DNA of 10,880 nt from a virus. Positions 176-1,324 of this stretch are shown here, piece after piece (the stretch's first letter is position 1; the number at the start of each line of letters is the position of its first letter). The stretch is taken from UHGV virus genome UHGV-0354908; one strand, given 5' to 3'. Both the position numbers and the translations under genes were made by a program. The notes below the pieces were generated by a model, which worked only from the letters and a program-made list of their open reading frames with translations, ran no database searches and was not told the origin of the DNA.

Positions 176-1324
176 GTTAAGCAGATTGAAGCAGCAAAGC
201 CGAAAGAAAAACCATACCGCCTTCTCGATGGTAATGGCCTGTACCTTTATGTCCCTGTATCAGGGAAAAAGGTATGGCAGCTTCGCTACAAGATTGACGG
301 TAAGGAGAAAGTCCTGACCGTAGGAAAATATCCGCTAATGACTTTGCAGGAGGCAAGGGATAAGGCATGGACTGCGAGGAAAGACATCTCGGTTGGCATC
401 GATCCGGTAAAGGCGAAAAAGGCTTCGTCTAACAACAATTCCTTTAGTGCGATTTACAAAGAATGGTACGAGCACAAGAAGCAAGTATGGTCTGTAGGGT
501 ATGCGACTGAACTTGCCAAAATGTTTGACGACGACATTTTACCTATCATCGGCGGTCTTGAGATTCAGGATATTGAGCCGATGCAACTGCTGGAAGTAAT
601 CCGCAGATTTGAAGATCGCGGTGCAATGGAGCGAGCCAACAAAGCCCGCAGAAGATGCGGCGAGGTTTTCCGTTACGCTATTGTCACCGGAAGGGCTAAA
701 TATAACCCAGCACCTGACCTTGCTGACGCCATGAAGGGATACCGCAAGAAGAACTTCCCGTTTCTTCCTGCAGACCAGATCCCGGCATTCAATAAAGCAC
801 TGGCAACATTTTCAGGAAGTATCGTATCGCTCATTGCCACCAAGGTTTTACGCTACACAGCCCTAAGAACAAAAGAGCTTCGTTCCATGCAATGGAAGAA
901 CGTCGATTTTGAAAACAGGATTATCACCATTGACGCCAATGTGATGAAGGGACGCAAAATTCATGTGGTCCCGATGTCAGACCAGGTGGTTGAACTTCTC
1001 ACTACGCTAAGCTCAATCACCAAACCAGTATCAGAGTTTGTTTTTGCCGGGCGCAACGATAAGAAGAAGCCAATCTGCGAGAACGCGGTATTGCTTGTGA
1101 TCAAACAAATCGGCTATGAAGGTCTGGAAAGCGGTCACGGATTCAGGCATGAATTCAGCACGATTATGAACGAGCACGAATGGCCTGCCGACGCCATTGA
1201 AGTGCAACTGGCACATGCCAACGGCGGATCTGTGCGTGGGATTTACAACCATGCACAGTATCTCGATAAGCGCAGAGAAATGATGCAATGGTGGGCGGAC
1301 TGGCTTGATGAAAAGGTGGAGTGA
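176..1324 (+). CDS. int: Tyrosine site-specific integrase, P4 / IntS-like; no canonical start codon at the 5' end (first ATG at 338)
   Basis: The frame is open from 176 (stop TAA at 173-175) to TGA at 1322-1324. Residues encoded by 176-337 (VKQIEAAKPKEKPYRLLDGNGLYLYVPVSGKKVWQLRYKIDGKEKVLTVGKYPL) match the conserved N-terminal arm-binding region of P4-type integrases, and the C-terminal part (HGFRHEFSTIMNE..., LAHANGGSVRGIYNHAQY) matches the catalytic region. There is no ATG, GTG or TTG in frame between 176 and 338, so the six-frame track calls 338..1324 (328 aa). Confidence 0.85.
   Translation, partial: VKQIEAAKPKEKPYRLLDGNGLYLYVPVSGKKVWQLRYKIDGKEKVLTVGKYPLMTLQEARDKAWTARKDISVGIDPVKAKKASSNNNSFSAIYKEWYEHKKQVWSVGYATELAKMFDDDILPIIGGLEIQDIEPMQLLEVIRRFEDRGAMERANKARRRCGEVFRYAIVTGRAKYNPAPDLADAMKGYRKKNFPFLPADQIPAFNKALATFSGSIVSLIATKVLRYTALRTKELRSMQWKNVDFENRIITIDANVMKGRKIHVVPMSDQVVELLTTLSSITKPVSEFVFAGRNDKKKPICENAVLLVIKQIGYEGLESGHGFRHEFSTIMNEHEWPADAIEVQLAHANGGSVRGIYNHAQYLDKRREMMQWWADWLDEKVE

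Follow-up and report, generated by a model that had tools for sequence, protein, structure and literature searches.

A breakpoint three codons into a prophage intS gene, most probably an assembly chimera, accounts for its missing start codon

The left end of the viral genome UHGV-0354908, analysed here as a single strand of 10,880 nt (the window), raises the question of how an integrase gene can encode nearly all of an N-terminal domain and have no start codon from which to translate it. As the earlier note described, a TAA codon at positions 173–175, immediately 5′ of and in frame with the integrase, is followed from position 176 by a P4-type N-terminal region (VKQIEAAKPKEKPYRLLDGNGLYL...GKEK), and the frame remains open, with no internal stops, to the stop codon at 1322–1324. 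Our codon scan agreed that there is no in-frame ATG, GTG or TTG until the ATG at 338, which gives an open reading frame of 328 amino acids (338..1324); between 176 and 338 the frame contains just four start-like codons, ATT185, CTG239, ATT293 and CTG314. The ATG at 165 was likewise found to lie in a different frame (165..317), which stops at 315–317. To explain this arrangement, the note had proposed a 5′-disrupted pseudogene, a start at an internal methionine without the arm-binding domain, or a rare start codon such as ATT185. The features of the gene are:

176..1324, + strand: intS codons 4–385 and the stop codon, defined by the reading frame, the alignment to intact intS and Pfam
173..175, + strand: in-frame TAA, the antisense of the TTA (Leu125) that ends a flipped intS fragment
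179..424, + strand: arm-type DNA-binding domain PF13356 (Pfam), nearly all of it encoded, beginning 5′ of the first canonical start
338..340, + strand: ATG, Met58 of full-length IntS and the first canonical start, with a weak AGGA 12 nt upstream

Three Pfam domains were recognized in the 382-codon frame: the arm-binding domain PF13356 (Arm-DNA-bind_3) at residues 2–83, covering profile positions 4–82/83 (E = 2.8e-24); the central core-binding domain PF22022 (Phage_int_M) at residues 90–185 (E = 5.7e-28); and the catalytic tyrosine-recombinase domain PF00589 (Phage_integrase) at residues 196–362 (E = 1.8e-39). Because PF13356 precedes the first canonical start at ATG338, the arm-binding domain is encoded yet unreachable from a canonical start. 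Judged by its sequence, the gene is intS, the argW-associated integrase of the KplE1/CPS-53 type, carried on an SfI/SfV-like serotype-converting prophage. KplE1 (CPS-53) in E. coli K-12 and its argW relatives (the HK620/Sf6 group) have the same gene, the window's copy showing 95–99.6% nucleotide identity to genes annotated ‘prophage integrase IntS’, and KplE1-type IntS has the three-domain layout of the window's integrase. Phages HF4s, N7 and HZ41 also match this intS-type integrase. The Shigella/E. coli phages SfI, SfIV and SfV match the window at ∼97% over 1366–10660, including the gtrA-gtrB-gtr(type) cassette and the Mu-like baseplate and tail genes, but their matches begin at 1366 and they do not share its integrase.

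To locate the point at which the gene departs from its intact relatives, positions 1–1400 were compared with 5,426 complete E. coli genomes, with 3,735 records matching. In all 30 of the matches listed among these 3,735 records, the match to intS starts at base 176. The number of missing residues was taken from a direct alignment to intact intS genes, because the integrase protein passed no IntS-specific NCBIfam model. The protein loss amounts to three residues, Met-Leu-Thr, base 176 being the first base of codon 4 (ATG CTC ACC/GTT AAG in the intact form). The search for intact orthologues that the note recommended was successful: in E. coli MRSN346647, for example, the start ATG lies 9 nt upstream of the base equivalent to 176 and the intact gene, downstream of the tRNA-Arg gene argW, reads ...ttttaccc ATG CTC ACC/GTT AAG CAG.... 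More generally, intact copies read cccATGCTCACC followed by GTTAAGCAG across the position matching 175/176. Since the gap coincides precisely with the end of homology to intact intS, the missing start is not a chance pattern; it is caused by a discontinuity in the sequence at 175/176 and not by an unusual translation start. The features that meet or pair at this discontinuity are:

175..176: blunt breakpoint with no microhomology, GGTAA/GTTAAG; the partners are allele B (...GGTAA/AATGTC) and intact intS (...CTCACC/GTTAAG)
1..175, − strand: inverted internal fragment of intS allele ‘B’, codons 125–182 (LPIIGGLEIQ...AKYNPA) plus one base, running off the left edge of the window
539..713, + strand: the window's own copy of the flipped segment, the second arm of the inverted repeat, with a 363-nt spacer

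The two partners share no bases at 175/176, and the breakpoint coincides on neither side with an att core or an IS end. No match to the junction 24-mer was found in GTDB species-representative genomes, IMG/VR viral contigs or JGI metagenome contigs, and 175/176 was not spanned in complete E. coli genomes among the matches listed. An exact-protein lookup of the 328-residue product (338..1324) returned no gene on record.

What lies to the left of the breakpoint is a piece of intS itself. Positions 1–175 pair with 539–713 as the 175-nt arms of an inverted repeat (95% complementary), and the reverse complement of 1–175 translates as LPIIGGLEIQDIEPMQ...AKYNPA, corresponding to IntS residues 125–182 (Pfam Phage_int_M, E = 4e-19). 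The flipped fragment differs from the window's own 539–713 at nine positions and has no mismatches to a second allele, B, which is the intS of E. coli EF5-18-41, Nord122 and PCP07083 (100% identical to the fragment). There were no other inverted repeats of at least 14 nt in 1–1500. The minus-strand frame above the junction is open for only 28 codons and contains no ATG, GTG or TTG; the flipped fragment has no start of its own and is likewise dead. A fold-back of the same gene copy, as from a missed hairpin adapter, was considered and rejected: the fragment has nine differences from 539–713, it matches the other allele exactly, and the join is not at the axis of a palindrome.

In KplE1, the promoter PintS, the arm-type P′ sites of IntS, the TorI sites and the core site all lie upstream of the intS ATG, inside attL and beside argW, as do the autoregulatory sites, and transcription starts ∼28 nt upstream of the ATG (PMC2951348). 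Intact copies of the gene (loci L001, L014 and L015) lie directly downstream of argW. In the window, by contrast, everything to the left of codon 4 has been lost: the first three codons, the ribosome-binding site, PintS, attL with its overlapping arm, TorI and core sites, and argW, with the inverted intS fragment in their place. No tRNA gene was found in the 10,880 nt, the 3′ end of argW had no match in the window with up to three mismatches allowed, and the 175 nt 5′ of intS, where argW or an att core with P′ arm sites would stand in a KplE1-type locus, are antisense intS. The cognate TorI-like RDF gene of such a module, at the opposite end of the prophage, would fall beyond the window.

Could an integrase still be made from the frame that remains? 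A product might be initiated at ATT185 (Ile7), CTG314 (Leu50) or ATG338 (Met58), and the shortened forms would be an arm-less recombinase or a regulator. The frame is intact from 176 to 1324; CTG314 has a Shine-Dalgarno-like TAAGGAG 6 nt upstream, which is the ideal spacing, and ATG338 has its AGGA. Against this, a scan of the + strand from 1 to 340 found no sigma-70-like promoter, the native promoter and transcription start having lain upstream of the lost ATG. The Shine-Dalgarno-like motif, at 306–312, is simply the G-K-E-K codons, and ATT185 is preceded by only TAAG. In the intact copies inspected (L001 and L014), the start codon is an ATG, three codons ahead of residue 4, and ATT185 falls inside the gene. 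Initiation at AUU or CUG is very inefficient in E. coli; conserved non-canonical starts of the AUU type occur, for example, in infC and pcnB. Initiation at 314 or 338 would remove 46 or 54, respectively, of the ∼82 residues of the arm-binding domain, and with attL absent there is no substrate for excision. We therefore consider a functional product very improbable. The gene lacks codons 1–3 and thus does not have the start codon and ribosome-binding site of a complete translatable gene.

Two of the note's three explanations accordingly fall away. The rare start at ATT185 would be an internal isoleucine codon with no promoter-like site ahead of it, and the start at ‘Met-55’, which is in fact Met-58 of the 385-residue full-length protein, would retain only the last 29 residues of the arm domain with both promoter and attL gone; we found no support for either a rare start or a working Met-58 form. 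The third, a 5′-disrupted pseudogene, fits the sequence as written and missed the cause, namely an inverted fragment of an intS allele joined at codon 4. We also rejected a −1 frameshift at the A-rich run (∼203–210) that would lead from the ATG165 frame into that of the integrase, there being no canonical X XXY YYZ heptamer; ATG165 is itself the antisense of the P-I-I-G codons in the flipped fragment.

We compared the remainder of the window with the argW prophage of MRSN346647, which has the order intS-gtrA-gtrB-gtr(type)-tail fibre-baseplate-DNA circularisation protein. Over 176–10660 there were only five mismatches in 10,485 nt, at 196, 223, 1234, 1240 and 1255. Each is a synonymous difference within intS, with the window in the allele-B state:

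196..223, + strand: two synonymous allele-B states (196 and 223), just to the right of the junction
1234..1255, + strand: three synonymous allele-B states (1234, 1240 and 1255)

Outside intS there were no differences in 9,336 aligned bases. Within it, nucleotide identity to the MRSN346647 copy was 99.6%, and residues 4–385 are identical in protein to the intact IntS of that strain. From the allele-B fragment, together with the five allele-B bases within otherwise MRSN346647-type sequence, the window thus combines material of two intS alleles. The five bases may reflect either gene conversion or allele mixing in the assembly. Alleles of intS are naturally mosaic: the patch 176–340 is 100% identical in one complete genome, MB06231, and the patch 1215–1324 has a best match of 99.1%.

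Two copies of intS can also occupy one chromosome. E. coli TUM9754 (L015, 13498–20547) has two complete intS genes downstream of argW, arranged in tandem in the same orientation, ∼6 kb apart and with 44 nucleotide differences between them, a natural case of tandem occupancy at argW. The TUM9754 pair flanks a small island with an O-antigen polymerase, IS1 and a recombinase, and an acyltransferase prophage follows the second intS.

The right end of the window contains a second junction of the same kind. Identity to MRSN346647 stops where the end of an IS903B begins, between the DNA-circularisation-protein gene and the tape-measure gene:

10661..10730, − strand: IS903B end, outer 70 nt, IS positions 1057 down to 988, starting where MRSN346647 identity stops
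10731..10880, + strand: flipped internal IS903B piece, IS positions 592–741, 150 nt, running to the window edge, with a 396-nt spacer

The join at 10730/10731 is blunt, with no base common to its partners, and the IS903B end at 10661 is intergenic. In element coordinates, the left junction is the reverse complement of gene positions 547 to 373 joined to gene position 10 onwards (spacer 363), and the right junction is the reverse complement of IS positions 1057 to 988 joined to IS positions 592 to 741 (spacer 396). In both cases, one strand of the element is read to a point and the sequence then continues on the opposite strand 363 or 396 nt further on, pointing back. The IS903B junction had no matches in species-representative genomes, no single contiguous match in E. 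coli genomes, and none that was contiguous in plasmids among the matches listed. Plasmid matches H115 and H116 were rejected as carriers of this junction, the two that were inspected being nested insertions of one IS into another with the pieces in a different order. Klebsiella plasmids L016 (1501–1677) and L017 (1501–1816) have IS903B inside IS903B in opposite orientation, which mimics the flipped junction in a BLAST table.

Going solely by the geometry of the joins, we infer with a probability of roughly 60% that 175/176 is a contig-end or paired-read chimera formed in repeats, and that it is probably absent from the living chromosome. Short-read assemblies of repeats can yield chimeras of this sort, although we found no specific description of such an artefact in the literature. 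A short-read contig would have run into a repeat and the chimera would have formed at its end: the sample would hold two intS alleles, and the right end of the window enters IS903B, a multi-copy element. The two mates of one Illumina fragment of ∼500–650 bp might have been written consecutively in the orientation in which they were read, in which case the fragment would exceed the read length by roughly 360–400 nt. Alternatively, a strand-switch chimera within one fragment would have the same appearance. On this reading the organism's intS would be intact and ordinary, with the five allele-B bases arising from allele mixing in the same collapsed repeat.

What we observed at both ends is a blunt inverted join inside a repeated element, to a partner from the same element that lies at a fragment-size distance and points back. 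One argument for a contig-end or paired-read chimera is the twin IS903B junction, with the same topology, no shared bases and a spacer of 396 as against 363 nt. A single technical cause would account for the lack of microhomology, the similar spacers and the position of the junctions inside repeats at both ends of the sequence; it would also account for the allele-B states at 196 and 223 next to the junction, which match the flipped arm, and for the loss of a start with no other damage. Since two full intS genes per genome occur naturally, as in TUM9754, a repeat-induced contig break in intS is to be expected, and the same-element partner at each end is explained if both halves stem from one DNA fragment. 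Neither junction was found in any collection scanned for it. The gene shows no decay, residues 4–385 being as in intact IntS and all differences synonymous, and the only differences from MRSN346647, a strain with argW and an intact intS, are the five allele-B bases that allele mixing would give. Other features fit an assembly chimera less well. Assemblers normally discard low-coverage chimeric k-mers and do not extend through them; the flipped pieces are unequal (175 and 150 nt); and the left piece extends 22 nt beyond the last base specific to allele B, which does not correspond to a standard k-mer boundary. Natural intS mosaicism, as in the MB06231 patch, means that the five B-type bases are no proof of mixing in silico, and the nearness of the junctions to the window ends is not decisive, because a real junction into repeats would also end a short-read contig soon after.

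A real inversion between two intS-bearing elements, such as a tandem pair at argW, with endpoints at 372/373 of allele B and 9/10 of allele A, is in our view the less probable account. The gene would then be a very recent 5′-truncated pseudogene that has lost contact with both promoter and attL. Gene-conversion tracts between the two copies would account for the five allele-B bases. The sequence as given does have such a structure, two intS copies per genome are natural, and one inversion of tandem copies yields exactly the reverse complement of B from 373 joined to A from 10. Chimeric paths are, moreover, rarely followed by assemblers, and the nearby stop of the sequence would also be accounted for by a real junction that runs into repeats. 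However, the endpoints lie in homologous genes of 1.2 kb and yet at non-homologous positions with no microhomology, a combination that random illegitimate recombination would be unlikely to produce. An independent event of like kind would be needed as well in IS903B, ∼10.5 kb away, and both events would have to have occurred in a lineage with no differences from MRSN346647 outside intS. Neither junction occurs independently in the other assemblies searched, and the gene has no secondary decay.

Both blunt inverted junctions could instead be real products of one mechanism, for instance a replication template switch to the opposite strand 360–400 nt away. We regard this as unlikely; if true, imperfect inverted duplications would decapitate the integrase and lock a serotype-converting prophage in place.

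Two further routes to the junctions were rejected. A misjoin in a De Bruijn graph via a shared k-mer is contradicted by the absence of shared sequence at either junction and of any further inverted repeat of at least 14 nt in 1–1500. Integrase-mediated recombination at a secondary att site, or an event mediated by IS ends, is contradicted by the absence of shared bases and by breakpoints that are neither an att core nor an IS terminus.

Like the 5′-truncated integrase pseudogenes of cryptic prophages, the gene has no start, promoter or att site and lies beside gtr cargo and tail genes. Typical decayed integrases, however, carry IS insertions, frameshifts and deletions, whereas this one is perfect from residue 4 and capped by a flipped paralogous allele. 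The window resembles short-read contig-end chimeras in its blunt inverted joins, in having multi-copy elements at both ends and in its fragment-sized spacers (363 and 396 nt); it differs from them in that its flipped pieces have no common length. Our conclusion is that an assembly chimera is the most probable source of the breakpoint three codons into intS; failing that, the gene is truncated in an ordinary way.

The cargo next to intS was also compared with other loci. The 490-residue type-specific Gtr glucosyltransferase (2772–4244, + strand) is indexed as an exact protein in 960 blocks of the collection. Of the ten Gtr loci shown (L003–L012), nine also contain gtrA and gtrB, with a DinI gene and a type VI secretion cluster alongside, and most of these nine have a different, non-Mu-like tail module. 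From the occurrence of an identical Gtr on different tail modules, we conclude that the O-antigen-modification cassette moves between prophage backbones. When the Gtr protein was used to look for other carriers of the junction, only loci with an intact intS or with other prophage backbones were returned. The open reading frame of the type-specific gtr gene has a mechanical start at TTG 2682 that overlaps gtrB by 83 nt (window 2682–2771, + strand); in the identical record, the annotated start corresponds to 2772. A 323-residue open reading frame upstream of the tail-fibre assembly gene (4675–5646, − strand) is called as a gene in one of the other Gtr loci (L011), and the MRSN346647 record, 100% identical here, annotates it as a pseudogene, a partial ‘carbohydrate kinase’ (L002, 6630–6971). 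The kinase label is probably a mis-annotation of a tail-fibre gene.

The breakpoint is of importance chiefly to annotation. If 338..1324 were called automatically, the result would be a 328-residue ‘integrase’ that is neither the real protein nor evidence of an arm-less variant, and a pseudogene call would imply a domestication of the prophage that may not exist. The locus presents no new type of start codon and no new integrase architecture, and knowledge of integrases and of translation initiation is unchanged either way. An assembly chimera would mean that the strain's intS is normal and its serotype-converting prophage potentially mobile. A real junction would leave the gtr O-antigen-modification cassette fixed in the chromosome, with no excision by the prophage's own recombination module.
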